Assembly: GCA_024231955.1 (NCBI GenBank)
Contig: JAAEPZ010000538.1
Span: 766,551 to 830,550 of the forward strand
Direction of reading: 5' to 3'
Source: a bacterium
GTDB taxonomy: Bacteria > Krumholzibacteriota > Krumholzibacteriia > JACNKJ01
DNA: 64,000 nucleotides
This document shows positions 20,615-49,500 of the stretch, piece after piece. The notes under the pieces were generated by a model that saw only the letters and a program-made list of their open reading frames with translations, made no database searches and was not told where the DNA came from. The translations under genes were made by a program, and so were the position numbers. Every line of letters starts with the position of its first letter. Positions within the stretch are counted from its first letter, which is position 1.

Positions 20615-20621
20615 GGGACCC

Positions 20622-23209
<2,588 letters not shown>

Positions 23210-23230
23210 TTTGAGATCCATCCCCGCAAT

Positions 23231-27586: not shown

Positions 27587-27670
27587 TACCCCGATGACGT
27601 CGGATATCCCGTTCGAAAATATCATCCGCAACACCTGAACCGATAGCCCTCCCGGGATGGGAGTGCTACA

Positions 27671-28807: not shown

Positions 28808-28813
28808 AGGAGT

Positions 28814-29494
28814 GTGCTTGAGATGAACAGCAAGGGACAATCGCCGCGCGCAGAGCTGCTGGCCGTCGCCAGGCAGTTGAATGCCGGCGGCCTGAACCAG
28901 GGCACATCGGGGAACCTGAGCATCCGCAGTGGCGGGAACCTTTTGATCACGCCGTCCGCCGTCCCCTACGATGAGATGGGGGAGGGTGACCTCGTCGAGA
29001 TGACCCTGACGGGCGATGTGCTGTCCGGCGGCAAGCCTTCGTCGGAATGGCGCTTCCACTGCGACATCCTCGCCGGGCGGGATGATGTTTCCGCCGTGCT
29101 GCACGCACATCCCGCATTCAGCACAGCACTGGCCTGTCTGCACCGGGAGATCCCCGCCTTCCACTACATGGTAGCTGCGGCCGGGGGCAACTCGATCCGT
29201 TGTGCGCCCTACGCCACCTTCGGCACGCCGGAGCTCTCCACCGCTGCGGCAGCCGCTTTGGCCGAGCGACGCGCCTGTCTGCTGGCCCAACATGGCATCA
29301 TCACCCTGGGCGCCACTCCGCGCGGTGCGCTGGATCTGGCGATCGAGGTGGAGGCGCTTGCGGCTCAGTACCTGCGCGTTTTACAGATAGGGGAACCGCG
29401 GCTGCTCGACGACGTCGAGATGAACCGCGTTCTTGCCGCTTTCAAGGATTATCGTCCCGGGGAACAAGGAGAGTGTCATGAGCCGCACCGATGA
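28814..29494 (+). CDS. mtnB: Class II aldolase/adducin-family protein, probably methylthioribulose-1-phosphate dehydratase.
   Basis: GNLSIR...HAHP class-II aldolase motifs. Immediately downstream of mtnA. Confidence 0.6.
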   Translation: MLEMNSKGQSPRAELLAVARQLNAGGLNQGTSGNLSIRSGGNLLITPSAVPYDEMGEGDLVEMTLTGDVLSGGKPSSEWRFHCDILAGRDDVSAVLHAHPAFSTALACLHREIPAFHYMVAAAGGNSIRCAPYATFGTPELSTAAAAALAERRACLLAQHGIITLGATPRGALDLAIEVEALAAQYLRVLQIGEPRLLDDVEMNRVLAAFKDYRPGEQGECHEPHR

Positions 29495-31364: not shown

Positions 31365-31565
31365 GGCGGCACCACTTCATTCGACATGGGTAGCTCTTGA
31401 TATCCACCCCCCCGATCCGTATAGTCGCGGACAGAGTTATTGTCGTATACGGAACTTCGCGTCGGCGGGGACACACCTCGCCGGAATTTGCCGCGCATTT
31501 CACTTGATCTCGATGAATATCGCTATGACCGCCAGCCGTTGGACAAATCGCAATGGAGGGAATTC

Positions 31566-32153
31566 ATGGATACGAACACATTTCTTCAGGAGGAGTACCG
31601 AACGCTAAGGGAGGAGATCAAGGAGACGAAGTCACGCATCTACAAGACTCTTTCCTACGGATTGATAGTCGTGCCCGCGGCTCATTACCTCGCCAAATCA
31701 TATGAGCTTGAGATAGTGCTCTATTCAACTCCGTTGCTGGTGATCGTGGTTGCGCTGCTCTACCTTTCAGAGAACCATGGCCTCATGCGTTGTGGGAGAT
31801 ACATTCTCCTCGAGATCGAACCTCATGTCGAAGAGGTTTTCGGGTGGGAATCCTGGTTGGAGACTCAAGGCACTTTCGATCCCAGGACCGTGGATAAATT
31901 CGTCTCCATCTGCTTCTACGTGTTGTACCTGGTCTATTTCACGGGTTCTGTGTATCTGGCGACGATACGCGCCATCGATCGGATGGGGATGCTGGCGGCC
32001 TCATTGATTCTGGGGATCTACTCCGCTGTGGGACTCTGGTTTCTCATCTACCTGTTCAGGCATATCCGCACTACGACGCGCACGGTGCTAGACTCCGAGG
32101 AGAAGGTTGCCCAGGCAAGAGAGTTTACCCGCAGCCGTTCGAATATCGGTTAG
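31566..32153 (+). CDS. Hypothetical membrane protein of lower GC than its neighbours.
   Basis: GGAGGG RBS before the MDTNTF start, about 4 TM helices. About 50 % GC against about 62 % flanks. Confidence 0.45.
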   Translation: MDTNTFLQEEYRTLREEIKETKSRIYKTLSYGLIVVPAAHYLAKSYELEIVLYSTPLLVIVVALLYLSENHGLMRCGRYILLEIEPHVEEVFGWESWLETQGTFDPRTVDKFVSICFYVLYLVYFTGSVYLATIRAIDRMGMLAASLILGIYSAVGLWFLIYLFRHIRTTTRTVLDSEEKVAQAREFTRSRSNIG

Positions 32154-32213: not shown

Positions 32214-34232
32214 TCAGTTGCCGCCCAGCAGCAGCACGAGTTTGTCCACCGAAACATGGTTGGAGAGAATGAGCATCTCCGACGGTTCCAGGTTGCCGAT
32301 CTCGACCACGTCGGCCGTCCAGCCATCCTGCTCCACGGATCGCACCGGCAGCCGGGTGCCGACCGCATAGGGGCCGGTGTAGTCCCCAGCGCAACCAGCC
32401 TGCATCGTGTTGACGATCACCGTCATCTTGCTCCCGGCAGGGGTCAGGCTCCGGTCGACGAGTATCCGTCCGCCCCGCTGCTCCCGTCCGTGGCTGTTCA
32501 GAATGCAGAGCGATTCCTCATCATCAAGGATCCGTGACCAGGCGATCAACTCGCCGGGGCCCTGCCGTTGCAGGTGATCGCCGAATACGGCCAGCGGCCG
32601 CAGATACTGTCGCCCCTTGCGCAGGACGGGGAACAGCACCCGGATGCGATTCAGCTCCGCGATACGGCGAAAGGCCGGGTGCTCCACATCGAAGCAGTGA
32701 TGTCCGACCGTGCCGGACGGCCCGAAGCCTGGCAGTTCGCCGTCCAGGTTGCCCGGCTCGTTGCCGGCCACACCTGTGGCGCGAGGATGCTCCGGACCGA
32801 ACATCGCCTCACGCAGATAGCGATCGTGTTCCCGCCATGAGGGCAGACCCAGCTCCCCCGCCGGGCCGCCGGTCAACGCCTGCTCGGTGCCGTAGTACAG
32901 GCAGGGCACCCCCAGCGTGAACAGCTGCAACGCCACGCCGGCCACGATCTGGTGGTCGCTGGCCGCGCCATGCGAGAAGCGGATCTTGCCCCCGCACACA
33001 TGATCGTGATCATCCAGGCAGGTGACGAACCGTTTGCCCAATGTACTTTTGGTGCCGAGGATGTCGCTGTGGTTCTCGAAGAACGAGAAGAGATCGGAGG
33101 GCGCCTGTAATCCCTTGGCCACATGATTCAATGTGAGGCGCGACTCGCCGATCCGCAGCGTGGCGTTGAGGTTGCGACCCAGCGCGTCGAGGTAGGCGTC
33201 GGCATTGGCGTCGGCGCCCGCGACCTCGCCGACGAGGAAGAAGTCATCCTTGCCCAGGTTGGCGGCGTACTCCTTGATCGCACCGCAGAAATTGCGACCC
33301 TCCTCCTTGGAGACATGCTTGAGCGTGTCGATGCGGAAACCGTCGCAGTCGGTCAGGGCGATCCAGTACTTGTAGCAGCGCGCCAACCAGGAGAGCGTCT
33401 CCGGTTCACGCAGCTGGAAATCGCGCATGTCCTCGAAATCCGTGCGACGATACTCGGACGCGGGATCATCGAGGTTCTCCGGTGTGTCGCCGCCGAGATT
33501 GCCCGACCCTGCGCGGGTATACCGATTCGGTGACTGAAACTCTTTCGGCCAGACACCATCCTCCGCTTGTGTGATCTTCTCCGTCGCCCGGCCCCGCCGA
33601 TCCCGCCAGCGGATACGGCTGTAGCTGTCCATTGTGTAGCGGGCGATCAGTTCACCGCTGTTATTGTCGTCGCGGGCCGGTGTCCCCGGGGGGTACAACC
33701 AGTTCGCCCCCGAGTGGTTGAAGATGATGTCGAGGATGACCCGGATGCCCCGCCAGTGCGCCTCGGCCACCAATTCGACCAGATCGGCGCGCGTGCCGAA
33801 GCGGGGATCGACATCCAGAAAGTCCTGAATGCCGTAGCCATGGTAGGTATCGAGATGGCCGCGCTGCTTGAACACGGGCCCCAGCCAGATGGTTGTGATC
33901 CCCAGTTTCTTGAGATAGAACAGCCTGGAGGTGGCGCCGCGAATCGTCCCGCCCTGCCAGCGGTCGCTGCCCGACTTGGCCCAGTTCTCCCAGTTCAGGC
34001 CTGCGGGCCGCGCTTCGTCGATCCTGTTGCGGTCGAGCAGGGGGCGATCGTTCCGCTCATCGCTGAACCGATCGGGCAGCAGGAAGTAGAGCACCTCATC
34101 GCGCCAGTCGGTGGGGGAGGGATGATACTCCTCGTGCCGTGGCAGTGGAATCTTGGCGACCTCAAGCGGCCTCTCGCGCGCCAACATCATTGCTGCGAAC
34201 CCGCTCATCAATGTATCCTTTTCCGTTTCCAT
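32214..34232 (-). CDS. GH13 alpha-amylase-family glycoside hydrolase, cytoplasmic (no signal peptide).
   Basis: GH13 regions YFLLPDRF, DIIFNHSG (region I), GFRIDTLKHV (region II). The antisense ORF 33567..34373 is rejected. Confidence 0.8.
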   Translation of the reverse strand: METEKDTLMSGFAAMMLARERPLEVAKIPLPRHEEYHPSPTDWRDEVLYFLLPDRFSDERNDRPLLDRNRIDEARPAGLNWENWAKSGSDRWQGGTIRGATSRLFYLKKLGITTIWLGPVFKQRGHLDTYHGYGIQDFLDVDPRFGTRADLVELVAEAHWRGIRVILDIIFNHSGANWLYPPGTPARDDNNSGELIARYTMDSYSRIRWRDRRGRATEKITQAEDGVWPKEFQSPNRYTRAGSGNLGGDTPENLDDPASEYRRTDFEDMRDFQLREPETLSWLARCYKYWIALTDCDGFRIDTLKHVSKEEGRNFCGAIKEYAANLGKDDFFLVGEVAGADANADAYLDALGRNLNATLRIGESRLTLNHVAKGLQAPSDLFSFFENHSDILGTKSTLGKRFVTCLDDHDHVCGGKIRFSHGAASDHQIVAGVALQLFTLGVPCLYYGTEQALTGGPAGELGLPSWREHDRYLREAMFGPEHPRATGVAGNEPGNLDGELPGFGPSGTVGHHCFDVEHPAFRRIAELNRIRVLFPVLRKGRQYLRPLAVFGDHLQRQGPGELIAWSRILDDEESLCILNSHGREQRGGRILVDRSLTPAGSKMTVIVNTMQAGCAGDYTGPYAVGTRLPVRSVEQDGWTADVVEIGNLEPSEMLILSNHVSVDKLVLLLGGN

Positions 34233-34513: not shown

Positions 34514-34540
34514 GGGGCTCCCGACAATCTCGGGAGCCCC
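34514..34540 (-). terminator. Intrinsic terminator for the giant CTD protein gene (minus strand).
   Basis: Perfect 11-bp stem GGGGCTCCCGA/TCGGGAGCCCC with a 5-nt loop. On the minus strand it is followed by CTCTCTTTATTAT. Confidence 0.55.
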
Positions 34541-34572: not shown

Positions 34573-37500
34573 TCACCGCAACATGACAAGTCGCTGCTGT
34601 TTGGTGTACCCCTGCGCCTCCATCCGCAGAAGGTAGATTCCGCTGGATTGGTCGTGCCCTCTGTCGTCTCTGCCCCGCCAGACGAGTTCATGGTGTCCCT
34701 GCTCGAAGCGGGTATCGGCCAGACGGATCACCCGGCGGCCCGATAGATCGAAGATACTCATCCGCACCTGGCCCGACTCGGCCAGCGTGAAAGCGATAGT
34801 CACCCGAGGGTTGAACGGGTTGGGATAGGGCGTCAGCAGGCAGGTGGCGATCGGATGCTCGGGCGCGAGCACACTAAGTTCCCCCAACGGGAACCACGCC
34901 TCTTCGCCATCGCGGCCAAAGAGCGTGTAGCTGATCTCCTGACCCGCCCAATCGCCCGGGATTGTGTTGCGCGCCTCGTAACTGCCCTGTTCGATCTCCC
35001 GCCACGGCAACTCAAGCTGCGTATCGGCGTGAGTCGCCTCCAGACGGAATCCGGGGGCCTCGGCAGGCGTCCCCAGCGACCAGTGAAGTATCACGACCCC
35101 CTCTTCGGTCTCGGCCGAAAAATCGGCGAGCAGGACGGGCGTGTCGTCGCAGCCTTGACCGAAGGCGCCCATCTGCACCATACAGATGTTGTTGGCAGGC
35201 AGGCAGGGGGAGCGCGCGTTCAGGGTCATGTTGCCCTCGCTGAGGTCGCAGAGGAGAGGGTTGGCGGAGATGTTGCCGTCCGAGCCGGTCGGGTCCGAGA
35301 GGCTGCCCGTGTAGTTGCCTCCCAGGTTCATGAAGACATTGCTGCAGAAGATGGTGAAAATCTGCTCATCGACCGCTGCGGGGTTGCCCCAGATGCCCCC
35401 CTGGGCGTCGTTGAAGGCAACCAGGCAGGCATTCATGCTCACACAGGCGCCGTCGAAGGCGATGGCGTCGCCCGCCAGGCCGCTGGAATTGCCGACGAAT
35501 GTGCACTCTGACAGGGTGACGCTGGAGTAGAAGGTATACAGACCTCCACCCTTTATGCTGCTTGTGCAGTTCAGAAAACTGACTCGCGTCATGACACTCC
35601 CGCCCTGGCTCAGATATACGGCGCCGCCGCACCCATCCGCATAATGGATGGCCGGTACGTAGGAGGAGCAATCCTCGAACAGAACATCAGTGAAGTTGCC
35701 GTATCCATAAACCGCGCCCCCGACCCCTTGATAGTAGCTTTCAAACCCGTCGGTAGCGTGGTTATCCCTGAATACGCAGTTGTGCAGCTCCATGCCGCGG
35801 GCGAAGATCGCACCGCCTGCACCGGCGTGGTTGCCGCTGAAGGTGCAGTCCCTGATCGTCGGATTGGCACTGGCGGCGATGCTGATCGCTCCGCCGGCTA
35901 TGGCGCTGTTGTTCGCAAAGAGGCAATCGGAGATGAGCGGCGCGCCGTCCCCCCTGACAAGGATCGCACCCCCCGTCGCAAAGGATCCTCCGCAGGAATC
36001 GAAGATCATGTCCTTCACGACGACGTGCTCAGCATCGATGCACAGCGCGGATTCGGCTCGCACGCCTGCCGCACATCTGATGGTGAAGCCGGAGATCTCC
36101 GCGTAGTCGTCTCCACCCATGTTGAACCAGACGGCTCTGCCGAAGCAGTCGCCCCAGGGAGAGTATTCGATAATCGTGGAATCGGGACCCGCAAGGGCAT
36201 GCAGGACGATGCCTCTCCCCCCGAACTCGATGTGATTCTCCCCGATCACCTCATAGGTGCCGGGGCGGACAAGAACGGAGTCGCCGGTGTTGCCGACGGC
36301 CATCGCCTCCTGGATCGTCGGATAGTCATCGGGGACGATGTAGACGGCATAGCCGGCGAGATAGTCCTGGTTGGGCTGATCCGCTGACACATCGCTATAG
36401 ACGATCTCGGGGGGCGAGAAGGTGAAGTCGTCGTGCCGGGGTGTGATGACGCCGCTCCAGTCAACCGGGACATGGAAACCGTAGAACCCCTCCTCATCGC
36501 TGACGTTCGTCATCGCGGCGCCATGGAGCATGACGAAGGCCAGACCCTGGTTGTCCGGGTCGGTTATCCGTCCCGAGATCTCGATCAACGATTCGGCGCA
36601 ACCCTGGCCGTATCTGCCGATCAACCGGGCGCAGGGATTATGCGCAGCCAGGCAGGGGGAGGCGGCGTTCAGCGAGTAGTCGCCGGCCGCCGGATCGCAG
36701 AACAGGGGTTCGACCGCAATGTTGCAGTCGTCGCCTGTCGGATCGTCAAAACCGATATAGGAGCCTCCGCTGTTGCCGAATGAGTTGCAGTTGCTCAGCC
36801 GGATATCTCCGGATGAATCGGTGACGATACCGCCGCCATTGCCGGCGTAGGCCAGGATCGTATCCTCCAGATGCAGGGTTCCCGTTCCGTTATGAAAAAT
36901 GTGCCCGCCCGTGAGATCCTGCAATGTCTCCACCGCATTGTCGACGAATGTGCAGTTCGAGATGCTGGGTGAACAGGTGTTGTCGATGTACATAGCCCCA
37001 CCGTATCCCGATATCTCATAGTATTGATTGAGTTGCGCGAGATTGCCGGTGAACAGGCAATGCTCGAATACGGGGGTTGATTCTCCGCCGCAGTAGACGG
37101 CGCCGCCGTAGCCCTGCATCTGTCCGCCCGATTGAGAGTGGAAAGGCTTGGCGAGATTGTCGCGGAAGGTCACATTGCTGAACACGGGTGCGCCGCCCAG
37201 TATCTGCGTGGCACCTCCTCTTCCTCTACCATTTTCGATGAATAGCGTATTGCGGATCTCCGGAGTGCCGGCCTCGATCCGGAGCGAGGAGTTGGGGTGG
37301 GAGTTGTTCATGAACACACAGTTTTCGATCAGGGGCGAACTGTTCTCAAGTATGTTGAGTACGCCCCCGATGTGATAGCTATCGTCAAAATCCATGTCCC
37401 TGAATATGCAATCACGCAATGTGGCGGAGGAGTTGTCGAAGGTGACGCCGGAATTGCTGCTGCCCGTGATCGTGAACCCCTCAATCAGGAGCGCACGTGA

Positions 37501-40038
37501 TTCGTTCCCGCGGATCATCAACCCGCTTTGATAAGCGTCCGTGTTGATGATCGTGGTCTGCGCCGACCCGCCGCTGCCGATCAGGACAACATCCTTGCCG
37601 AGGAAATCTATCACCCCCCCGGGATACCCGGCGAGCGAGTATTCTCCGGGCGCCACCAGAATAGTATCTCCCGCCACGGCGAAGTCCAGCGCAGTCTGGA
37701 TGTCGGGGAAGATGCTGGGTACGAGATGGGGTTGGGACAGGCGTGTAGCCGTGAAATCCTGATCGGGGATATCTCCGTTCAGATCCGTATAGGAGCGGCT
37801 CGCCGGGGTCATGTCGTAGCCGAACTTGACGGGGGTCGCCGTGTCCGACCAGCCCGTCTGTCTGACCATCCCGTAATATCCCGTCTCGTCGGTGCGGGTC
37901 TCATACAGGCCGCTGGTGTCGATCAGAACATCCGCCAACGGTTCGCCCATCGTATCGAGCACATGGCCGCTGATCAGGTAATCGCTGACCTCGTCGCAGC
38001 CTCGGCCGAACATGCCCATCCGTCGGCCGCATCCGTTGTTTTCCGGCAGACAGGGAGAATTCGCACCCAGTTGATAAACACCGGAGAGTTGGGCACAGAA
38101 ACGGGGATCAAGGGAGATGTTGCCGTTCCGACCTGTTTGATCGCCCAGATTCTCGCAGTAGTTGCCGCCAAGGTTGTCGAATACGTCGGAGCAGGATATG
38201 GTCAGGACGCTGCCGTAAGGTTGTTTGAGCGCCGGCATGCTGCCCATATTGAAAGCAATGATACTCTCGGTCAAAGTGAATTCCCCGCCGTGGAGTTTAA
38301 CCGCCGGGCTTTTATTCTCCACCAGAGTGAGGTCCGAGCAACTTACGGATGCGTACAACGCGAATATCCCTCCGCTGGTTAAGGCACTGTTCCCTCGGAT
38401 CAGCGAGTTGTGCAACTCCAAGTCGGCATCGAGTCCGACATACAGCGCACCAGCCTGCTCGGCGCTGCAACCGGTGATCTGGAGATCCGAAATCACCCCC
38501 CGGGCAGCGCCCGCAATGTAGATACCTCCGCCTTGGCTGGAAGCGTGACAACCTTGGATCCGGATATCCACCAACGTAAAATCCATAGCATCCAGGAAGA
38601 TGCCGGCGCCGTCATGGGGGACGCTGCCGTTGATGATGCTGATGCCCTGGATACGGATGGAGGGCATCTCGGCGGACGACTGGATATCGAAACCGCGGCC
38701 TGCGCCCTCGCAATCGATGACCGTGACATCGGAGCCGCCCTCACCGATCAGGCTTATGTCCCGGTTGCCGAGAACGATCTCCTTGTTCCCCTCGCCGGTG
38801 TAGAGACCCGGCGCTACAATCACGGTGTAGCCGTCGAGGCAGGCATCCACGGCAGCCTGGATCGTGGGGTAGTCGGCGGGTACGTGATGGGATTGAACCT
38901 CACCGATGCAACCCATGCCGAGATAACCCATCAGCTCATGACAGTCATTGTTTGCGGGTAGACACTCCGAGTTCACCCCCAATGACAGATCGCCCGCCTC
39001 AAGATCGCAGAACAGCGGATCGACTCCGATGTTGCACGCCACACCAACCTGGCTGGGGATGCCGCCCCCGAAATTGCCGTGCGTGTTTCCGAAGATATCG
39101 CTGCTGGAGATATCGAATACTATGAAATTGTAGGCGTGGATACCATGCTGGTCGCCATGGTTGAAAGCGATAATGCCGTTGCGGAATTCAACTTCGCTGT
39201 AGGATCCAGCGCAATAGATGCCGCCGTTGCCGTTGTCTACGATATCGACCTGCTCCATCTCGATATCGCGGGAGTTTATGACATAGATACCGCCGCCGTT
39301 GAGAGCCGATGTGTTGCTGCGGATCTCGCCCTTCTCGATCACTGTAGCGGTGTTGTCGCTCAGGTGGAGTCCGCCGCCGCTGCCGTCCGTGCTGCAGCCG
39401 CTGATTATGAAATTCGTCAATATGCCCGCCGAGGCGTTCATGCTGAAGAGCCCGCCACCGTTTACCCGGGCAAAGCAATCGGTGATCACGATCCGATTCA
39501 GATCGGTTGAGCCGGGGGTTTCCAGATAGATGCCGCCACCCATCTCTGTGGATTGACATTCACTGATCAACAGGTCCTCGATGACGAGATGGTCGGGCAG
39601 AATGGCGTATAGACCGCCGCCATCGCCCACGCTGCTGCAATTCTCAATGATCAGATCGGCAAGGGCAGGTTTTCCCTGCAGACAGAAAATGCCGCCGCCA
39701 GATCCCGGTACATCGCCGTTGCGGATGGTGAACCCCTGAATGCGGTAGGGGACGTTCTCGTTCATCAGAATATAGAAGCCGCGGCCTGCGCCTTCGCAAT
39801 CGATTATCGTGGCTGCGGCTCCCCCGACCCCGATAACGGCGATTTCAAGGAAACTGATCTCTATGTCGACGTTGCCGGGACCGCTGTAGACGCCCGGCGC
39901 AACCAGAACGGTGTCGCCTGCGGCGGCGGCGTCGACACCCGCCTGGATGGTTGGAGCATCCTCAGGTACGGATATTGTTATTGCGGTGGCGGTTGAAGCG
40001 AAACAGAGGAGCAGACAGATACAGGCGGAGATGCGCAT
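34573..40038 (-). CDS. Giant (about 1821 aa) secreted modular protein with four parallel-beta-helix modules and a C-terminal Por_Secre_tail domain.
   Basis: Signal peptide MRISACICLLLCFASTATA. Four repeats each begin P-[TD]-IQ-x-A-[VL]-D-x-A-x-x-GDT-[IV]-LVAPG-x-Y and end with a Cys-rich linker (FCDLEAGDLSLGVNSECLPANNDC and three paralogous copies). The C-terminus is YPNPFNPRVTIAF...GIYLLRMEA...RLVMLR. Confidence 0.8.
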   Translation of the reverse strand: MRISACICLLLCFASTATAITISVPEDAPTIQAGVDAAAAGDTVLVAPGVYSGPGNVDIEISFLEIAVIGVGGAAATIIDCEGAGRGFYILMNENVPYRIQGFTIRNGDVPGSGGGIFCLQGKPALADLIIENCSSVGDGGGLYAILPDHLVIEDLLISECQSTEMGGGIYLETPGSTDLNRIVITDCFARVNGGGLFSMNASAGILTNFIISGCSTDGSGGGLHLSDNTATVIEKGEIRSNTSALNGGGIYVINSRDIEMEQVDIVDNGNGGIYCAGSYSEVEFRNGIIAFNHGDQHGIHAYNFIVFDISSSDIFGNTHGNFGGGIPSQVGVACNIGVDPLFCDLEAGDLSLGVNSECLPANNDCHELMGYLGMGCIGEVQSHHVPADYPTIQAAVDACLDGYTVIVAPGLYTGEGNKEIVLGNRDISLIGEGGSDVTVIDCEGAGRGFDIQSSAEMPSIRIQGISIINGSVPHDGAGIFLDAMDFTLVDIRIQGCHASSQGGGIYIAGAARGVISDLQITGCSAEQAGALYVGLDADLELHNSLIRGNSALTSGGIFALYASVSCSDLTLVENKSPAVKLHGGEFTLTESIIAFNMGSMPALKQPYGSVLTISCSDVFDNLGGNYCENLGDQTGRNGNISLDPRFCAQLSGVYQLGANSPCLPENNGCGRRMGMFGRGCDEVSDYLISGHVLDTMGEPLADVLIDTSGLYETRTDETGYYGMVRQTGWSDTATPVKFGYDMTPASRSYTDLNGDIPDQDFTATRLSQPHLVPSIFPDIQTALDFAVAGDTILVAPGEYSLAGYPGGVIDFLGKDVVLIGSGGSAQTTIINTDAYQSGLMIRGNESRALLIEGFTITGSSNSGVTFDNSSATLRDCIFRDMDFDDSYHIGGVLNILENSSPLIENCVFMNNSHPNSSLRIEAGTPEIRNTLFIENGRGRGGATQILGGAPVFSNVTFRDNLAKPFHSQSGGQMQGYGGAVYCGGESTPVFEHCLFTGNLAQLNQYYEISGYGGAMYIDNTCSPSISNCTFVDNAVETLQDLTGGHIFHNGTGTLHLEDTILAYAGNGGGIVTDSSGDIRLSNCNSFGNSGGSYIGFDDPTGDDCNIAVEPLFCDPAAGDYSLNAASPCLAAHNPCARLIGRYGQGCAESLIEISGRITDPDNQGLAFVMLHGAAMTNVSDEEGFYGFHVPVDWSGVITPRHDDFTFSPPEIVYSDVSADQPNQDYLAGYAVYIVPDDYPTIQEAMAVGNTGDSVLVRPGTYEVIGENHIEFGGRGIVLHALAGPDSTIIEYSPWGDCFGRAVWFNMGGDDYAEISGFTIRCAAGVRAESALCIDAEHVVVKDMIFDSCGGSFATGGAILVRGDGAPLISDCLFANNSAIAGGAISIAASANPTIRDCTFSGNHAGAGGAIFARGMELHNCVFRDNHATDGFESYYQGVGGAVYGYGNFTDVLFEDCSSYVPAIHYADGCGGAVYLSQGGSVMTRVSFLNCTSSIKGGGLYTFYSSVTLSECTFVGNSSGLAGDAIAFDGACVSMNACLVAFNDAQGGIWGNPAAVDEQIFTIFCSNVFMNLGGNYTGSLSDPTGSDGNISANPLLCDLSEGNMTLNARSPCLPANNICMVQMGAFGQGCDDTPVLLADFSAETEEGVVILHWSLGTPAEAPGFRLEATHADTQLELPWREIEQGSYEARNTIPGDWAGQEISYTLFGRDGEEAWFPLGELSVLAPEHPIATCLLTPYPNPFNPRVTIAFTLAESGQVRMSIFDLSGRRVIRLADTRFEQGHHELVWRGRDDRGHDQSSGIYLLRMEAQGYTKQQRLVMLR

Positions 40039-40248
40039 TATTACCTCTAGACAAGCTGTCCTGCATAATCCTGTGCAGGTATCAGTCAACCCTGAATATT
40101 AGTTGAACGGACCAATAGCGATGCGACGTAATAGCCTCCTGTATGAAGTAATATTAACATGGCGGCATAGGACTGTCAACGCGCAGTGAACACCGAGGGG
40201 GGATGGCGGATCTCATATGGGATCGGTTGCGAACAGGATCGACGCGAA

Positions 40249-41700
40249 TCAATCCCCCACCCAGGCCATATCCCTGTCGATGGGGTAGACGGGACGGCGC
40301 AGCCGCGTAAATGGCATCTCCTCGATCCGGCAGTCGGTGGCTCCGGGCGTGAGCGCCAGGATCGAACGGGGGCAGATGGCCTGGAGCGCGGCGGTCAGAT
40401 AGCCCCGTTTGATCGCCACCAGGCGATAACTTAGCGGGTCGAGGCCCAGTCGCTCATATTGTATCGGCTCGAGGAAATTGAGACGTCCCGTCGACAGGAT
40501 GATATCCACGCCCCGGCAGCGGACCAGCGCGACAGGTCCCTCGAGCTCGCGCCCATCGTACGATTCACGTTGATCGAAGAGCGCCAATACCTCGCAGTTC
40601 ACGGAGATCGACTCGCCGTGCCGTCTCTCGATCTTGCCGCCGATGCTCAAAGCCACATCGGCTCCGATTCCCGCCTCCCTGCAGGCGGCAACGGCGGCTT
40701 CGTCCCGGATCGAGGAGAACAATGCGCCCTGAACATCCCGCATCAGCAGGGCCGCGAGCAGCGCGGTGACATCCGTTGTGCCCCCGGCGCCGGGGTTGTC
40801 GCCCGTATCGGAGAGAAAGACGGTGCTCTCAGACGCAACCAGCGCCAGGGTCACCGCCTCCTCGATGGGCACCGCCTCCGCGTTGGCGGCGAAGTCGGCG
40901 CGCCTGCTCCAAAACAGTTCGGCGAGTTCGGCGGCACCGGCGTGGGCCAACTGCAGGTCATTGTCGGTGACCACAACCGCAGCCACGCCGAGATCGGGGA
41001 TGTCCGCCCAGCAGTGGCCATTGGCGACGGCCGCCGCCAGGATACCCGGTTGGGCCTCGAGTTGCGCAACCCGGTTCATTACGTCGAGCATGGGGGGGAG
41101 ATCGGTTTGCGCCATCTCACCCGGCAACAGAAAGGGGATGCGCGCCAGACCGATGCGGGGACGCACACCGTGGCGCAATATGCCGAGGAGCAGTCGGGCG
41201 GCACGTACGCCGGTGTCGTAGGTGTCGATGTGCGGCGCGGTGTGGTAAACCGTCAGAGCGTCCACCTGCGCCACGAGGTCTGCGGTGATATTGGCGTGCA
41301 TGTCCAGGGAGATGACCACGGGGATGTCGGGACCGACGATTCGCCGCAGCTCCGCGAGTATCGCCGCCTCGCAGTAATCGATCCCCTCCGTGCGCATGGC
41401 GCCGTGGAGGTGCAGGCAGACGCCATCGATATCGACGGCGGCTGCGAGCAGCCTTTTACTGAACTCCTCGAATGACGCCCGCTCAACCACTCCGCCGGGC
41501 ATGGCGCTGGCGATGAGCGATGGCTTGAGTTCGACACCCTCGGATACGAGAGTGTCGATAATGCCGCCGATCGCCGCCTGCAGGAGGGGACCCTCCTGCA
41601 GCATCTCATCACCGAACCGGAGGTGGAAATCACTGCGTTGCGTCAGATGTGGGGTGAACGTGTTGGACTCGTGTCCGATGTGACCGACGAGAACCTTCAC
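40249..41700 (-). CDS. M81-family metallopeptidase (MlrC/microcystinase-C-like).
   Basis: DUF1485-like N-terminus (KVLVGHIGHESNTF), then an MlrC C-terminal-like region. The exact start is uncertain; the ORF overlaps the upstream gene. Confidence 0.6.
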   Translation of the reverse strand: MKVLVGHIGHESNTFTPHLTQRSDFHLRFGDEMLQEGPLLQAAIGGIIDTLVSEGVELKPSLIASAMPGGVVERASFEEFSKRLLAAAVDIDGVCLHLHGAMRTEGIDYCEAAILAELRRIVGPDIPVVISLDMHANITADLVAQVDALTVYHTAPHIDTYDTGVRAARLLLGILRHGVRPRIGLARIPFLLPGEMAQTDLPPMLDVMNRVAQLEAQPGILAAAVANGHCWADIPDLGVAAVVVTDNDLQLAHAGAAELAELFWSRRADFAANAEAVPIEEAVTLALVASESTVFLSDTGDNPGAGGTTDVTALLAALLMRDVQGALFSSIRDEAAVAACREAGIGADVALSIGGKIERRHGESISVNCEVLALFDQRESYDGRELEGPVALVRCRGVDIILSTGRLNFLEPIQYERLGLDPLSYRLVAIKRGYLTAALQAICPRSILALTPGATDCRIEEMPFTRLRRPVYPIDRDMAWVGD

Positions 41701-41725
41701 GGATGCCTCTCCCCGCTTCAGGCGA

Positions 41726-43306
41726 TCAATGACCGCCCAGTTTGATGGCGTCACTCACCGCGAAACGTTCACGACGAACTGCCTGTTGCTTGCCGAGACG
41801 GTCCTCAACAGTGATCTCCAGGATATAGCCGCCCGGGTCCAGGTCGTCAACCGAGATGGTCAGCGGATGGACCGATTGCCCCCCGGCCTGACGATTGGCC
41901 AGTGTCGAGCTGATGTCGATGCTGTCCCTGTCGAAGTTCAACAGCCAGCCGCTCGTGCTCTCCCGCTTGGCCTCGAGAATGCGATAGCTCAGACGATAGT
42001 CGTTGAGTCCGTGGGCATCCGTGGCCAGATTGTAGATCTCGAAGTATACGGAGAGCGGATGATGCTTGTTGTAGGAGCGCAACGGGTGGGGGAAGATATT
42101 CCATTCACCCTTGCGGAACAGCTTGGGTTCCGCGTTGCCGTTGATCGCGCTGGCGAAGGCGATGTCGCTGAGGCGCAGGCTGTCCCCCAGATCGGGCACG
42201 GTGACCTTCGTGGTGTAGATCTGCAGAGCATCGCCCTGCATATCCTCCAGACGCAACGCGGCGCTGTATTCGCCGGGGAGGATCTCATGGACCATCAGAC
42301 CGGAGAACAGCTGCCCCTGATTTTCCGGTTCCTCGGTTCTCCTGTCGAAACGGATCTTGTTGCTGACTTCACTGACCGCTGTGCCGAGTGAATCGAAGAG
42401 TGTGCAACTCTGCAGCAACCCGGCTTCCCACCTGTTGTGTCCGGGCTTCCTCTTGAACTCCAGATCGTTCAGCCGGATCTGGTAACTCACATCCACCCGC
42501 ATGGCTGCGGTTTGGCTGCGGAAGCAGTCCATCGCGAACACGCTCCACAGAGGTTGGTTGTCCGTGAAGAGAGTGGAGTGGACCTCCCCGTTCTTCACAG
42601 CCTTCTGCAGTGAAGCCCGCATCATGGTCTGTTTGTTGATCGGATAGGGCGCAGGGGAGGAGTACTGCAGCTGCGACATTATCGGCCCGAGATCCTCCCC
42701 CTTGTTCTCCCTTCTTACGGTCTGCAGCGAGACATACTTGCCCGCGGCTTCAAAGTACTCGCTCGTGGTCAAGTGTTGTTCATAGGTCATCATGTACATC
42801 AGGTCGCTCCAGACCCAGGTCAGCCTGTTGCCGTTGACGTAGGTCAGGATATCGACCGGTTCGAAGTATACCTGGTCGGGGGGGCCGAACATGATGTAGT
42901 CGCGGCCGCGATGATCGAACCCAGGCGGATCGACCGACGTGTAGATATCCAGAGCGAGCTTGAGCCTGCGCAGGTGCTCCTCCCGCCGCTCGTTCACCGG
43001 CGTCGTCGGGCTGGGATCACGCACTCGCCAGAACTCCTCAAGCCAGAGATCCAGCTCCCTCTTGTCGGTAATCCGGACAAAGGACTGATGCTCCTCGGGG
43101 GACATGATCAGGGACAGATGCATGCGCGAGGAGCTCTTTTCGGGGAAGCTGATCTCTCCGGGCACAGTGCCGTAGAGCGGAGGTTTCGATTTGCCGCATC
43201 GGCAGAGCCCCCCTATGGTCAGCAGCAGCATCAGGAGGAGCAGGGGATACTTGGCGCTGATGAGGATGTTGTGGGCAGCTGATCTTTGTTTGGGGCGTTG
43301 AGACAT
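41726..43306 (-). CDS. GWxTD-domain-containing secreted protein.
   Basis: Signal or lipoprotein-like N-terminus. GWxTD-family pattern EFWRVRDP...ERREEHLRRL...GFDHRGRDYIMFGPPD. Confidence 0.55.
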   Translation of the reverse strand: MSQRPKQRSAAHNILISAKYPLLLLMLLLTIGGLCRCGKSKPPLYGTVPGEISFPEKSSSRMHLSLIMSPEEHQSFVRITDKRELDLWLEEFWRVRDPSPTTPVNERREEHLRRLKLALDIYTSVDPPGFDHRGRDYIMFGPPDQVYFEPVDILTYVNGNRLTWVWSDLMYMMTYEQHLTTSEYFEAAGKYVSLQTVRRENKGEDLGPIMSQLQYSSPAPYPINKQTMMRASLQKAVKNGEVHSTLFTDNQPLWSVFAMDCFRSQTAAMRVDVSYQIRLNDLEFKRKPGHNRWEAGLLQSCTLFDSLGTAVSEVSNKIRFDRRTEEPENQGQLFSGLMVHEILPGEYSAALRLEDMQGDALQIYTTKVTVPDLGDSLRLSDIAFASAINGNAEPKLFRKGEWNIFPHPLRSYNKHHPLSVYFEIYNLATDAHGLNDYRLSYRILEAKRESTSGWLLNFDRDSIDISSTLANRQAGGQSVHPLTISVDDLDPGGYILEITVEDRLGKQQAVRRERFAVSDAIKLGGH

Positions 43307-43464
43307 GAAAAACTCCAGGCAGGACCGCTGTTTGAAATCATCTCATCCGTTGTGATGAGATAGGGATCTGTCGGCTCGCAATTTATATGAACCGGGCAAC
43401 CTGGCAAGGATTGGCTGTATTGATAAACCTCTTGACGGCGGGAGGGAAGCGGAAAATCGCCGGG

Positions 43465-45045
43465 TCAGCGCACCGGCACCGATTCCATACCATCCTTGCC
43501 GTCAATGTACTGCAAAATCAACGTGCTTTCCGCGCCATCACCGTGACGAAAGCGCATGACCTCCCGACCGTCGGGCGCAAGACGTTCGGGCACGGTGAGA
43601 AAGTACCAGGAGCCGAATTGATTCTCCGTGAAGTTTTTCCTGCGGTAGAGGGGGTGATCGAGCAGCTGCTGAAGGAATATGCCCGTCTTGAAGAACTGCG
43701 TGGTGTAGGACACGGCGTCGCTGATGACCAGAGGCGCGGTCTCATCGGTCATATGGGAGACGACTCGTTCGGCCTCGGGCTTCAGATCCCGCCGTTGCAG
43801 CGCCCGGTAGTTGTAGAGACCGTGTTGCTGAACGGTCAGCAGCAACAGGATCACGGTTGCCGCGAAGCGGAGCAACCTCCGTTTCGCCGTCAGGCCTTCG
43901 CGAACTGCATAACCGGCCGCCAGAAGGAGGATGATCCCCTCCGGCCAGCGCCCCTCCCTGATGAAGTATGCGCCACCGAACAATCCCGCTGCTGCGCCCA
44001 GGCCGAGGAATGCGCGTTGAATCCAGGCGCGGGGAATCCTGTCCGGATCGATATGCAGCGCCAGGACAATTGCCAGGAGCGGGAAGGCGGGGAGAAGATA
44101 GCGATCCACCGCGCCGGGCATGATGGTGAAGATCGTCAGTGCGATCAGGAACCCGTAGAGACTGATCCGGTAGAGCGGAGCCTCCCTGAATTCGCTGCGG
44201 CGGTTGCCGAACCAGAGAACAAGCGGCCAGGGCAGCCAGAGCAACAGGATCCTGAGCGGGAAGCTCACGAGGTGTTTGCAGAGGGCGAGGACCTCGCCGC
44301 TCGCACGGGCGGATACCTCGGAGCCCAGGACCCGCGTGAGATCCATTATGTCCCCCTGCGCGCAGTAGAGCCCGACCCAGACGGCGGGCAGGAGCAGAGA
44401 GGCCAGGGCGTGCCCCAGCAACCCGGCCAGGCGGCGTCCACGCGCTTGCTCGTGCATGACGGCATGCACCAGCAGCGGCGGGTAGAAGAACAGTGGTGAA
44501 ACACCTTTGGTCAGGATGCCCAATCCCACCAGCATGGCGGAGAGAACGAAACGCCATGGTCTGCGCGGATCGGGCAGATAGACCGCGAAAGCCATGATGC
44601 AGAGGGCGGTGACGAGCATGTCCGGTTCGACCTTGTTGCCGTATTCGAAGAGCATCAGGGCGTTGCCGATCGTGATCAGGAATCCGAGCAAAGCCCGACG
44701 CGGCGCTACGCGCAACAGGAGCAGATACACGGCCAGCGCTGCCGCCGCCAGAGCCAGCGACGAGATGGCGCGGGCGCTGAAGCCGGTAACCTCGCCGAAG
44801 GGGAGAGAGGCCAGCACGATCAACCAGTTGTGCGCCGGCGGTTTCTTGAAGTAGGGATGCTGGAAGATGGTCGGGACGATGTACTCGCCCTTCACCATCA
44901 TCTCCTGGGCGACGATGGCGCGACGCGATTCCTCGTGGAAAAACGGATGGCGATTACTGTAGATGAGCAGCGTCAGGAGGACGAACAGTGAGATCAGGAT
45001 CACCGGCAGGTGATTGCCGCGTCCGACTGATTCCCGGTTGGTCAT
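43465..45045 (-). CDS. ArnT/PMT-like GT-C family membrane glycosyltransferase (GT39/83).
   Basis: About 12 TM helices with conserved early loops (HPFFHEESRRAIVAQEMM, FQHPYFKKPP, GVSPLFFYP) typical of polyprenyl-phosphate-sugar-dependent GT-C enzymes. Confidence 0.7.
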   Translation of the reverse strand: MTNRESVGRGNHLPVILISLFVLLTLLIYSNRHPFFHEESRRAIVAQEMMVKGEYIVPTIFQHPYFKKPPAHNWLIVLASLPFGEVTGFSARAISSLALAAAALAVYLLLLRVAPRRALLGFLITIGNALMLFEYGNKVEPDMLVTALCIMAFAVYLPDPRRPWRFVLSAMLVGLGILTKGVSPLFFYPPLLVHAVMHEQARGRRLAGLLGHALASLLLPAVWVGLYCAQGDIMDLTRVLGSEVSARASGEVLALCKHLVSFPLRILLLWLPWPLVLWFGNRRSEFREAPLYRISLYGFLIALTIFTIMPGAVDRYLLPAFPLLAIVLALHIDPDRIPRAWIQRAFLGLGAAAGLFGGAYFIREGRWPEGIILLLAAGYAVREGLTAKRRLLRFAATVILLLLTVQQHGLYNYRALQRRDLKPEAERVVSHMTDETAPLVISDAVSYTTQFFKTGIFLQQLLDHPLYRRKNFTENQFGSWYFLTVPERLAPDGREVMRFRHGDGAESTLILQYIDGKDGMESVPVR

Positions 45046-45067
45046 GCTCGTGGCCGCCCCCCCGACT

Positions 45068-45361
45068 TCAGGATGATTCATCGGCGGTCGCCAGCGCCGC
45101 GCGCTTTCTGTAGATCAGAATCAGGTTCCGGATATAGATGATGCTGCCGGTGCTCTGGCCAAGGATGAAGACCGGATCCTGCTTATGGATGGCGTAGGTG
45201 AGCAGCATGGCGGAACCGATGATGCTCAGATACCAGAAGACGATGGGGATGGTGCTTTCGCCCCGTTTTTCGCTTGCGATCCACTGCACCAGAAAACGTC
45301 CGGCGAATATCGCCTGCGCGATGAAGCCGATGACGACCCAGGCATCCCAGGACTCAGGCAT
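45068..45361 (-). CDS. Small membrane protein with a lipid-A-biosynthesis N-terminal (LAB_N)-like domain.
   Basis: 97 aa, FAGRFLVQWIASEK motif (FxGRFxVQW) and 3 TM segments. Its start overlaps the upstream GT2 stop (ATGCCTGA). Confidence 0.55.
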   Translation of the reverse strand: MPESWDAWVVIGFIAQAIFAGRFLVQWIASEKRGESTIPIVFWYLSIIGSAMLLTYAIHKQDPVFILGQSTGSIIYIRNLILIYRKRAALATADESS

Positions 45362-46220
45362 CGGTCTCCCCCTTCGACACGCAGGAGGTGGTCGCCACCT
45401 GCGGCAGCACGTGCCGTTTGAGATACCAGCGCACGCCGAATGTGTCGTAGAGCCCGACCCAGAGACGGTTGTTGATTCCGTACTTGGCGGTGCCCAGCGT
45501 TCGGGGGCGGTGATTCACCGGCATCTCCTTCATCCTGTAGCCCCGCATCCCCACCAGGGTGGGGAAGAAGCGGTGCATCCCCTTGAAGAGGGGGATACCC
45601 TCAACGCACTCCCGGTAGAAGACACGCAGCGAACAGCCGACATCGGTAACGGTGCGGCCGGTCATGGCGTTGCGGAAGCTGTTGGCGATTTTCGACGACA
45701 GTCGACGCACGGCGCTGTCATTGCGACGGGCGCGCAGACCGTTGACCATCTCGACGTCGGAACGCTCCAACTCATCCACCAGGCGCGGCAGGTCGGCCGG
45801 ATCGTTTTGCAGATCGCCGTCGAGCGTGGCCAGAATCCGACCCTGCGCGGTGCGGAACCCCACCGCCATCGCAGCCGACTGACCGAAGTTGCCTTTGAGC
45901 GCGACGAAGTGATGTCGCGGCTCCCGCTCGTGAAGTTCACGCAGGCCCGCAAGGGTGCCGTCGCTGGAGCCGTCATCAATCCACAGGCACTCCCAGGTGC
46001 GGGGCTGACTGTTGAATGCATCGCTGATTTCCCGGGCCAGCACCGGGGCTGACTCCTCTTCGTTGTAGACGGGGACGATAATGGAGATATCCGGCTTCAA
46101 AGGCTTCCGATCTGATGGAGTCAGCGGGTCTGGGCAATGCCCGTTTCGATATGTCGTTCTGCTCTCGGGTCGGTTCATCAATCCAGGAAAATAGCAGATC
46201 CAATGATCCTGATCAAACAT
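45354..46220 (-). CDS. GT2-family polyprenol-phosphate glycosyltransferase (ArnC/GtrB/DPM1-like).
   Basis: ISIIVPVYNEE, WIDDGSSDGT, LDGDLQNDP (DxD) and a C-terminal TM region. The start is uncertain (Met at 46220 or 46178). Confidence 0.7.
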   Translation of the reverse strand: MFDQDHWICYFPGLMNRPESRTTYRNGHCPDPLTPSDRKPLKPDISIIVPVYNEEESAPVLAREISDAFNSQPRTWECLWIDDGSSDGTLAGLRELHEREPRHHFVALKGNFGQSAAMAVGFRTAQGRILATLDGDLQNDPADLPRLVDELERSDVEMVNGLRARRNDSAVRRLSSKIANSFRNAMTGRTVTDVGCSLRVFYRECVEGIPLFKGMHRFFPTLVGMRGYRMKEMPVNHRPRTLGTAKYGINNRLWVGLYDTFGVRWYLKRHVLPQVATTSCVSKGETDA

Positions 46221-46534: not shown

Positions 46535-49500
46535 TTGGAGGTTCTCGTGAAGAGCGTGCTGATCAGATCGATCATGATATTCCGGATATTCATGTTGCTG
46601 CTTCTCTTTGCCGATGAGCTGGCGCAGGCCCAGGCGGGTCCGGTCAGGCAATTGGATCTCCGTGCACCGCTCGCGGCTGCGACACTGACGCGGGCTGCCG
46701 CTCCGGGTCACCACCTGCCGGATGCCGCGCTGTTGACAAAACAGCGCAATGTACGTCGCCAGGTATCGGCGAAGCAGGCGATACCGGATCGCCCCCTGCC
46801 CGAATTCATCGATCGCGACTATACCGCCGAAGCGAGTCACGGCGGCGATGGCCGCGAGTGCGAACTCGCCCCCGAGATGAAGGCCGAGTTGGCGCGGCTC
46901 ACCGACCTGCTCCACCAGAGGGAGGCCGAGGGGGCCGCGGGGGGGATCGTACGCGGCTCCGACCGCGAAGCCCCCTGGAGCGAATCACATCTGCTCGCGG
47001 ATGCCACCCACATGGCGGACCAGTACGTCTCGCTGCAACGGAGTCCGGCGGGCCACCTCTACGCAGTCTGGCAAGCCAATGATCTGGGCGGTTCGGATCG
47101 CGATATCCACATCGCCGTGAGTCTCTCCAACGGCATGACCTGGCAAGTCTACGAAATGCCCTCCTATGATCAGGACGAATACCACGCCGAACTCGCCATC
47201 GATGCCGCCGGTTATCTGTTCGTCACCTGGATTCGCGCCGATGGTGTGATCCTCCGTTCGCGCTCCATGACGTCTGAATCCGTTCAGAGCTGGGCCTGGG
47301 TCAAAGGCCTCAGCAGCGGCGAAACCCACGCCACCCCCTGCATCGCCGTCAGCGGTTCGGGCAACTATGCCCGCGTTTTCATCTGCGCGGCGTGGAATAC
47401 GATCAACTACAATCTCATGACCTATGAGTGGACCCTGATCTGGATGTACAGCACCAACGGCGGCGATACGGTCAATCACGATTACTTCGATCCCGACGGC
47501 TACCCCGACTACTGGCCCGACGCCGAGATGAACAACTCCACCGTTTACCTGCTCAATGCCGAAAAGGATTACCAGACGGGCGTGCTCGAGGTCGTAGCGG
47601 CCGATGGCCCGCTCGGCGGCATATTCAACGAGCCGTGGTACCTCACCTCCTGGACCGACTTCAACTGCCAGTTCCCCTCCCTGACGGCACAGGGCGACAA
47701 CGTGTTCGCCGTCTTCCAGATGGAGTACGACGACGGGATCGGCAACACCGATGGCGACATCGTTTTCTGCTACTCGGACGATGGCTTGGCCAGCATGTAT
47801 GGTCCCTACGAGATGGCCTGCGACGATTACGACAGCGTGGGACCGGTTCTCTACAGCCACGATGGTGTGGTGGGCTGCCTGTGGCTCGACGCGGCGCCGG
47901 GCGATGATGAGTTCATGTTGTGCGCCCGTCAGGCCGGAGGGTCCGGGCATCCCGATGCCTGGGGCGAAATAGAAACGATACTCGAAGACAGATATGTCGA
48001 TCCCATGTTCCGCACCGCAGCGGGTACTTTCGGCTACAACAAACTGCACGCAGCCTGGTCCGATCGACGCGATTATCCCACGCAGAACATGAATATCTAC
48101 ACAAGTGAGCGACCGGTGCTGCCCAACCTGACGGCGTGCGTGCCTGCCGGCTGGGACAGTTCGCTGGTGCTCAACCTGGTTGCGGGGGAGCGGAGCAACG
48201 GCCTGCTCGCAGCGGACGAAACCGCCTACCTGAGCTGCGCCTTCACGAATAGCGGCATGCAGGACATCGCCGCCGATTTTCAATTGCGTCTTCTGGTGGA
48301 CGGTGAGCCCTACGCGACCTGGGAGCTCAGCGGCGGCCTGGGTACCGGTTACTACAGCGCGGTGGAGGACTATCCGTTGACCCTGCCCGCGGGCATTCAC
48401 CTGATCGAATTCGAACTCGATTTCACCGACCTCATCGACGAAGACGACGAAACCGACAACACCGCCAGCGACAATTTCAATTTCATCGATGGTGATCCGC
48501 GACTCCTGCTGGCGCCGACCCAGCTCACACATGTCTTTGACGACGGCCAGGCGCGCGGCGCGCAGCCCGTCACGCCTTTGATCAATCGTGTGAGCGTGCC
48601 GGTGATCAGCGAGCGTCTCGCCGAAGCGATGTTCGACGCGGGCGATGGGGAGAAACTGCGCGTTCTGGTCGAGCCGCGGCGTCAGGTCGATGCCCTCGCC
48701 CTGCGCACCCGGCTTGCGGGGCTGTCGCGAGACGGTCGCGGGGAGCGGACTGCCAGTGCGCTTCGCAGCACCATGCGTGAAAATCGCGTCTTGCTCGATC
48801 CTCAACTCCGCGCTCTGATCGAGCGGGGTGAGGCCCTGGAGCCGGTGGAGCTTTGGTTCTCCGGCCAGTTGCTGGTCGAGATGAGCTCCGTCGCCGTACG
48901 TGAACTGGCGGAGAATCCGGAGGTGGGGTTGCTCTGGCTGGACGATCTGAAGAGCGAGTTCTTCACCGAACCGAGTGAGACGGAGACCGCCGGTGGTCGC
49001 GCTCTGGCCTGGCACCTGAACAAGATAGGCGCCCCAGCCGCCTGGGCGCAGGGGTACGACGGCACCGGGATCCTGATCGGCCACCTCGACAGCGGCGTGG
49101 CCTGGGATCATCCCGATCTGACTGCCGGCCTTTGGGACGGAGGTTCCAGCTACCCGCATCACGGCTGGGATTGTCTCGACGAGGATAATGATCCCTACGA
49201 CGGCGACACCGACTACCATCACGGCACCCACACGGCGGGTTGCATCATCGGCACCGGCGCCTTGGGTACAACCAGCGGCGCGGCTCCCGGTGCGCGTCTG
49301 ATCGCTTTGCGCTGTGTCCCCGGGTACTTCGCCGACTTCGTGGAGGGGCTGCAATTCTGCCTGGATCACGGCACGCAGGTGATAAACGCATCGGCGGGCT
49401 GGTCCAATCCCCCGGCGGAGCTCAGTGAGGCCAACCGCGATAATGCGAATATCCTGGCCGCCGCCGGGATAGCCTGGGTTTGCGCCGCCGGCAATGGCGA

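Follow-up and report, generated by a model that had tools for sequence, protein, structure and literature searches.

A probable juxtaposition of an envelope-glycolipid cassette, a GWxTD–M81 gene pair and a predicted type IX secretion cargo gene in a Krumholzibacteriota genome

Sugars can be added to bacterial envelopes by three-component systems. The closest known relative of the genes considered here is the ArnC/ArnE-ArnF/ArnT pathway for lipid A aminoarabinose of Enterobacteria (with ArnT of Cupriavidus, a GT83 enzyme, available as structures 5EZM and 5F15), in which a family 2 glycosyltransferase (GT2) charging polyprenyl phosphate is combined with a small membrane component and a glycosyltransferase of the GT-C fold acting at the periplasmic face. 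Other three-component systems are GtrA/GtrB/GtrC for O-antigen glucosylation, mycobacterial PpgS/Rv3632/Rv3779 and Bordetella LgmA-D, and eukaryotic dolichol-phosphate-mannose synthase (DPMS) is composed of DPM1 with the membrane subunits DPM2 and DPM3. We analysed a 64 000-nucleotide stretch (hereafter the window) of a genome of the phylum Krumholzibacteriota, in which genes for a GT2, a small LAB_N membrane protein and a GT-C lie upstream of three further genes, the last coding for a giant beta-helix protein with a C-terminal domain (CTD) typical of cargo of the type IX secretion system (T9SS). A preliminary description of this DNA had proposed that the six genes constitute a dedicated module for glycosylation or maturation of surface proteins. 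Our analysis suggests that the 11.6-kb run is probably three juxtaposed units, namely an envelope-glycolipid cassette, a GWxTD-M81 pair and an ordinary T9SS beta-helix cargo gene, and that the position of the trio beside the giant secreted protein looks coincidental. In the order of transcription, the six genes are:

45354..46220, minus strand: GT2, ArnC/GtrB/DPMS-like predicted polyprenyl-phosphate glycosyltransferase, 288 aa (Pfam Glycos_transf_2, E=5e-28)
45068..45361, minus strand: LAB_N small membrane protein, 97 aa, three predicted helices (PF07578, E=3.9e-33)
43465..45081, minus strand: ArnT-like GT-C glycosyltransferase, 538 aa (PMT_2, 37 bits against a cut-off of 26)
41726..43306, minus strand: GWxTD-domain protein, 526 aa (NCBIfam TIGR04514, E=3.6e-15, 56.4 against 28 bits)
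40249..41700, minus strand: M81/MlrC-like metallopeptidase, predicted cytoplasmic (DUF1485/M81, E=3e-92; MlrC_C, E=4e-46)
34573..40038, minus strand: secreted beta-helix protein, 1821 aa, with a predicted signal peptide (Beta_helix, E=3.5e-44; Por_Secre_tail)

The open reading frames (ORFs) and the Pfam/NCBIfam matches agree with the preliminary description as to the six co-directional minus-strand genes between 46220 and 34573, their order and their domains. The proposed link between them was examined in related genomes. The nearest relatives of the window proteins belong to Candidatus Eisenbacteria and Krumholzibacteriota. For 88 loci in which a relative of the GT-C is encoded, the gene and at most 10 kb of DNA on either flank were taken, and every ORF was compared with the six window proteins; a CTD profile derived from the window was run against the same ORFs. 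None of the 88 loci had a relative of GWxTD or M81 within 10 kb of the GT-C gene, and no relative of M81, GT2, LAB_N or GT-C was found in any of 61 loci carrying GWxTD relatives; the module as proposed thus finds no support from either side. The preliminary description had also suggested looking for co-occurrence of GWxTD, LAB_N and GT-C with CTD cargo. A CTD-encoding ORF lay within 10 kb in three of the 88 GT-C loci, which represent only two distinct loci since L003 and L013 are from the same contig, and was adjacent in none.

Relatives from at least five phyla have the GT2, LAB_N and GT-C genes together, and the trio was counted in more than 12 independent loci. All through the closest clade of the GT-C, made up of Eisenbacteria, Acidobacteria and unclassified metagenome-assembled genomes, GT2 and LAB_N adjoin it, and either the complete trio or a GT2-LAB_N pair convergent with the GT-C was found in loci L001-L004, L007, L008, L010, L011, L013, L014, L023, L027, L031 and L154/155. 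The trio is also annotated in the cultured Azospirillum, Ilyobacter and Pelagovum. Its neighbours vary: they include resistance–nodulation–division (RND) efflux pumps, two-component sensor kinases (the Ilyobacter copy lies beside a two-component system), a major facilitator superfamily (MFS) transporter, TPR proteins and a GT4, and next after the closest GT-C homologue (43% identity) come a GT4 glycosyltransferase and a methyltransferase. The arrangement named beforehand as the alternative, in which such trios would consistently sit beside lipid A or lipopolysaccharide (LPS) genes, was therefore not seen either. In L154/155 a CTD protein is encoded 2.3 kb from the trio, and the trio relatives of CTD-rich Eisenbacteria (L001, L007, L010, L011) have no adjacent cargo. 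Descriptions of the T9SS come mainly from Bacteroidota and allied phyla of the Fibrobacteres–Chlorobi–Bacteroidetes (FCB) group; on that background, CTD cargo is not expected in Azospirillum, Ilyobacter or Pelagovum.

The layout of the run also separates the three blocks. Within the trio the genes overlap, by 8 nt between GT2 and LAB_N, as had been noticed for their start and stop, and by 14 nt between LAB_N and GT-C, and from these overlaps the three genes are predicted to be translationally coupled. The statement that all six genes are joined by short gaps or overlaps holds for the trio but not for the borders of the blocks, where the GT-C and GWxTD genes are 158 nt apart and the M81 and giant genes 210 nt apart. 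The signals in and around these gaps are:

43307..43464, minus strand: intergenic gap of 158 nt, with a weak promoter-like site at 43407-43380 and a 9-bp hairpin without a U-tract
40151..40179, minus strand: sigma-70-like promoter candidate TTGACA-17-TAATAT, 10/12 consensus matches, in the 210-nt gap
34514..34540, minus strand: intrinsic-terminator-like hairpin, 11 pairs of which 9 are G-C, followed by a U-rich tail (z = -2.15)

The 158-nt gap also contains a GGAG motif 8 nt ahead of the GWxTD ATG. The 210-nt gap is AT-richer, and a GAGG placed 6 nt ahead of the ATG of the giant gene makes a good Shine–Dalgarno (SD) sequence; the strong terminator-like hairpin follows the giant gene and closes the run. 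A promoter-like signal, a ribosome-binding site and a terminator of its own would thereby make the giant gene a unit by itself. The idea that the gaps encode regulatory RNAs was rejected: the Rfam search gave no match at E<=0.1 and the gaps fold no better than shuffled sequences (z = -1.6 for the 158-nt gap, not significant). Taken together, the gaps of 158 and 210 nt, the promoter-like site with 10 of 12 matches, the cytoplasmic prediction for M81 and the density of CTD genes described below argue that the units are separate. Co-directionality itself is weak evidence for a functional link, because the amylase gene downstream (32214-34232) has the same orientation and a plus-strand series of about a dozen genes occupies 9848-25201.

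The GT-C had been described as ArnT/PMT-like. Its resemblance to ArnT was borne out and that to PMT was not. A profile of 14 GT-C homologues gave a single match in the PDB, ArnT 5EZM of Cupriavidus metallidurans (E=5e-28), over nearly the full length, and no PMT chain at E<=0.01. The AlphaFold 2 model (pLDDT 85, pTM 0.86) displays the ArnT topology with a small C-terminal periplasmic domain, and in Foldseek it matched ArnT 5F15 (E=1.8e-13, TM-score 0.63 over the full length) eight orders of magnitude ahead of the next matches AglB, ALG9 and PglB (E>=2.9e-5), with no PMT among the top 50. In the alignment of the 14 homologues E50, E51, R53, R54, E60, K80 and E152 are invariant and D154 is at least 90% conserved; a hidden Markov model alignment pairs D55, K85, D158 and R270, residues of C. 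metallidurans ArnT that serve catalysis and the binding of the lipid phosphate, with E50, K80, D154 and a position occupied by Arg/Lys. The conserved motifs, an acidic pair in the first loop, the lysine of YFKKPP and the aspartate of EPD, thus have counterparts in ArnT, namely acidic and basic residues of its first periplasmic loop and D158. PMT/GT39 and TMTC enzymes share with this protein the Pfam PMT_2 superfamily and a lipid-phosphate-sugar donor, but the Pfam scan found no MIR, PMT_4TMC or TPR domain in it. By sequence and predicted fold, then, the GT-C is ArnT-like and not PMT-like.

By analogy, this GT-C would work like ArnT without being ArnT itself. It reaches only 54.5 bits with the ArnT equivalog NF009784 (cut-off 567), and no arnA, arnB or arnD domains were present among the scanned ORFs of the window (most ORFs of at least 200 aa), which argues against ArnT proper. 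The residues E84, H265 and H267, which bind Zn in ArnT, have no conserved counterpart here. The GT2 differs from ArnC in a similar manner: ArnC is its best NCBIfam match (E=2e-41), but at 142 bits it remains under the 529-bit cut-off, and it lacks the ArnC transmembrane (TM) hairpin, no TM-like segment being predicted in it. The third component differs from both ArnE/F and GtrA, as it is a LAB_N protein with no GtrA match in the Pfam scan. The Gtr, PpgS/Rv3632/Rv3779 and LgmA-D systems nevertheless follow the same logic, with the same style of gene order and translational coupling of three genes. The proposal that a GT2, a small membrane protein and a GT-C here form a lipid-linked-sugar pathway is thus well supported by the coupling of the trio and its recurrence across phyla.

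We picture the trio (43465-46220) as a widespread, self-contained envelope-glycosylation cassette. Judging from its family, the soluble ArnC-like GT2 would use a nucleotide sugar as donor and charge polyprenyl phosphate with the sugar on the cytoplasmic side of the membrane. The three-helix LAB_N protein would supply the membrane part missing from the GT2, as the strictly complementary pattern described below suggests, and may help to flip the lipid-linked sugar. The ArnT-like GT-C would then move the sugar to an acceptor facing the periplasm, most likely, by analogy with ArnT, a phosphate or sugar of lipid A or of the LPS core.

The presence of LAB_N and of a TM hairpin in the GT2 was scored over the window (45068-46220) and loci L001-L088 and L150-L160. 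All 13 GT2s encoded beside LAB_N in the fetched loci were devoid of a TM helix and ended 5-46 residues past the catalytic domain, whereas all 30 GT2s beside GT-C relatives without LAB_N, mostly from Bacteroidota, had two TM-like helices in a C-terminal tail of approximately 100 aa, as in ArnC and GtrB. The same rule holds for further GT2-LAB_N pairs from Nitrospina-like, unclassified and cultured genomes. GT2 homologues are 235-303 aa long; the window GT2 itself may start at ATG 46220 or at ATG 46177, its ORF being open as far as 46535. LAB_N is 62-82% identical to relatives in other phyla, compared with only 35-43% for its GT-C neighbour, and more than 1900 relatives of the family were found. 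A TM-less catalytic GT2 depending on a separate small membrane protein is known from DPM1 with DPM2/DPM3, which have no sequence relationship to GT2-LAB_N.

Tentatively, and with a little less than even confidence, we propose that LAB_N serves a split polyprenyl-phosphate glycosyltransferase as its dedicated membrane subunit, replacing the ArnC/GtrB TM hairpin non-homologously and maybe also serving as a flippase; the physical interaction between GT2 and LAB_N is inferred from the complementary pattern. An origin of LAB_N by gene fission, as a TM hairpin split off from a GT2, was rejected: LAB_N and the TM tails show no homology (hhalign probability 0.5%, hmmsearch E>0.07), which indicates non-homologous substitution. 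The sole hint of a flippase is a sub-threshold match to MtN3_slv (18.7 against 23.7 bits). The monomer model of LAB_N is mediocre (three helices at 4-33, 40-59 and 64-96, pLDDT 71, pTM 0.46), and with this model a SemiSWEET fold received no Foldseek support, the best match having E=1.9 and no SemiSWEET being present among 38 weak matches. In Chlamydia-type LpxB (model PRK01021) a LAB_N domain is fused to another glycosyltransferase acting at the membrane surface, as would suit a module for the membrane or the lipid substrate. LgmD of Bordetella may be a LAB_N protein. A study on the Bordetella system reports lgmD, the fourth small gene, as non-essential for glucosamine (GlcN) modification (PMC4993483). 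Our searches of the literature on LAB_N yielded no functional study, PF07578 appearing only in one unrelated SWEET paper, and searches for COG3952 and IPR011499 returned nothing.

A GT2-LAB_N pair also occurs in the monoderm Paenibacillus cellulosilyticus (NZ_CP054613.1, L159, 1847-5315), where genes for a UDP-glucose dehydrogenase, an NAD-dependent epimerase/dehydratase, a TM-less GT2 and LAB_N are co-directional and no GT-C adjoins the pair. This suggests that the pair is a generic synthase of lipid-linked sugars, with the acceptor set by the partner transferase. The PLSDB gene table has no genes at this position. If true, the split-synthase role would give a function to a widespread, highly conserved family named only after a domain of a lipid A enzyme. 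The complementarity between LAB_N and TM-less GT2s is in any case a small testable lead, unrelated to the question of a six-gene link.

The second unit, a GWxTD protein with a cytoplasmic M81 peptidase, would be tightly coupled in this genome only. The first protein is assigned to the GWxTD family by its NCBIfam match only; neither it nor its 20 closest relatives match Pfam (PF20094 included), and the name-giving motif is here spelled GFDHRG. The protein has an N-terminal hydrophobic signal or anchor, with a TM-like segment at residues 13-35. Relatives were sought in the PDB as well as in Pfam and none was found, and a search of the literature on GWxTD gave nothing relevant. The longest M81 ORF begins at GTG 41754 and would overlap the GWxTD gene by 29 nt. 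GTG 41700, 25 nt past the GWxTD stop, is preceded at 5 nt by the SD sequence GGGGAGAGG and gives the usual N-terminus MKVLVGHIGHESNTF; it is probably the true start, judging from these sequence features, so that the two genes would be separated by 25 nt and would not overlap. The M81 domains score well above their cut-offs (DUF1485 309 bits, MlrC_C 158 bits). With the microcystinase MlrC model the score is 147 against 999 bits, and the protein is thus a member of the M81 family and not an MlrC equivalog. No signal peptide, TM segment or hydrophobic N-terminus was predicted in it, and a protein without an export signal would not meet a secreted substrate.

The third unit consists of the giant gene alone. 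Its product was correctly described as an 1821-aa four-module beta-helix protein with a Por_Secre_tail: four right-handed beta-helix modules start at residues 29, 391, 778 and 1240, and two CarboxypepD_reg-like spacers are present. With a CTD above the cut-offs (Por_Secre_tail 27.6 against 27 bits; TIGR04183 32.8 against 23 bits, E=5e-8) and a predicted signal peptide (hydrophobic N-terminus MRISACICLLLCFASTATA), the protein qualifies as predicted T9SS type A cargo. Hints that it might be a glycoprotein were sought and did not exceed expectation: no linker is rich in Ser/Thr/Pro (these residues reach at most 37% of any 30-residue segment), and the Bacteroidota-type sequon D[ST][AILVMT] occurs 7 times against 6.2+/-2.4 expected.

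Four CTD proteins are encoded in the window (1297-3075, 25273-26583, 34573-40038 and 46535-50542). At about one CTD gene per 16 kb, such a gene is expected by chance within a few kilobases of any other gene. The CTD gene on the far side of the trio is divergent from the GT2 gene across a gap of approximately 315 bp:

46535-50542, plus strand: subtilase, 1335 aa (Peptidase_S8 + CARDB + CTD)

CTD-cargo neighbours should not be over-interpreted in genomes that are rich in CTD proteins.

Three other explanations can be set against that of three juxtaposed units. An unlikely one, though the most probable of them, is that beta-helix CTD proteins have the GWxTD protein as an accessory factor, alone or together with M81, in which case the lower three genes would be a unit apart from the trio. 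In the Krumholzibacteriia loci L090/L091 (6484-11635) a gene coding for an S8 peptidase with beta-helix and CTD ends exactly at the start of the GWxTD orthologue, in L094 (6109-11446) an S8+beta-helix+CTD gene likewise abuts it, in L097 and L099 CTD genes lie 1-3 kb downstream, and the spacing of GWxTD and M81 is only 25 nt here. However, M81 is missing from all 61 GWxTD loci, proximity to CTD genes is expected in most loci at the density given above, direct adjacency concerns only about two independent lineages, and the giant gene has a promoter-like site of its own. The CTD proteins involved are not orthologues of window proteins: when the S8-CTD protein or the giant protein of the window was considered as a counterpart of the Krumholzibacteriia gene, the similarity proved to be at the level of domains only, with no hidden synteny. 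GWxTD relatives are themselves often found in tandem arrays of two or three paralogues (L109, L116, L124, L130). The adjacency of GWxTD and CTD genes, with about two independent cases at a high CTD density, is a lead and not a finding.

It is rather less probable, and in our opinion very unlikely, that a single operon comprises all six genes, with the GT-C O-glycosylating the giant protein or CTD cargo in general and with GWxTD and M81 taking part in its maturation. The genes are co-directional with no clear terminator before 34540-34514, the GT-C matches Pfam PMT_2, CTD cargo is found on both flanks of the trio and a CTD protein is encoded 2.3 kb from it in L154/155. Against this, the 88 and 61 related loci show zero co-occurrence, the trio is present in Azospirillum and Ilyobacter, outside the phyla known for the T9SS, the GT-C is ArnT-like, M81 lacks an export signal, the giant protein has neither a Ser/Thr/Pro-rich region nor an excess of sequons, and its gene has its own promoter-like site and SD. 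A dedicated operon of this kind would, if true, be a new route for glycosylating T9SS cargo; the evidence is to the contrary.

In Bacteroidota, CTD cargo is anchored to anionic LPS (A-LPS). A link through such an anchor, in which the sortase of the T9SS would join CTD cargo to an LPS or glycolipid decorated by the trio, in the manner of A-LPS in Porphyromonas, would make the clustering with cargo genes functional without the protein being the acceptor. It is the least probable of the three, for although an ArnT-like GT-C suggests a lipid A/LPS-type acceptor and cargo genes flank the trio on both sides, the CTD-rich Eisenbacteria carry trios without adjacent cargo, the cassette occurs just as much in phyla that are not known for the T9SS, and cargo density alone accounts for the adjacency.

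Several observations weigh against the division into three units, or against details of it. The trio does lie between CTD cargo on both flanks, the S8 protease (46535-50542) and the giant protein (34573-40038). No U-tract terminator-like hairpin was found after the GT-C or M81 genes, and transcripts of the trio may thus continue into the genes downstream. Promoter-like matches number 4 in the region against 4.6 in shuffled sequences, and these sites are matches to the sigma-70 consensus only, from which the promoter consensus of an uncultured FCB-like lineage may differ. The nearest available GT-C relatives are just 35-43% identical, so that missing synteny does not exclude a lineage-specific link. 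Finally, a lipid A acceptor is suggested by analogy only, and the GT2-LAB_N pair of the monoderm Paenibacillus indicates that acceptors vary within the family.

What stays under the reading as three units is one more copy of a widespread envelope-modification cassette, of value as annotation guidance: PMT_2 matches beside GT2 and LAB_N genes are best read as ArnT-like glycolipid transferases. The window contains a second GT-C. At 3181-5250 (plus strand) a GT-C (PMT_2) is fused to C-terminal TPR repeats, a fusion that had been pointed out as a possible TMTC-like protein O-glycosyltransferase and is borne out at the domain level. It is divergent from one of the CTD-bearing proteins (1297-3075, minus strand, 592 aa), which has no other recognizable domain. 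In another CTD protein (25273-26583, minus strand, 436 aa) the T9SS-type CTD accompanies a domain resembling class-II glutamine amidotransferases (GATase_4, E=2.6e-18), an unusual pairing for a secreted protein. Four sizeable ORFs of 237-588 aa, putative genes at 27527-29293, 56448-58154 and 26540-27520 on the minus strand and at 31440-32153 on the plus strand, have no Pfam match at E<=0.001. The gene at 51170-53260 (minus strand) codes for a methyl-accepting chemotaxis protein whose sensor region contains two CHASE3 stretches (E=6e-80).

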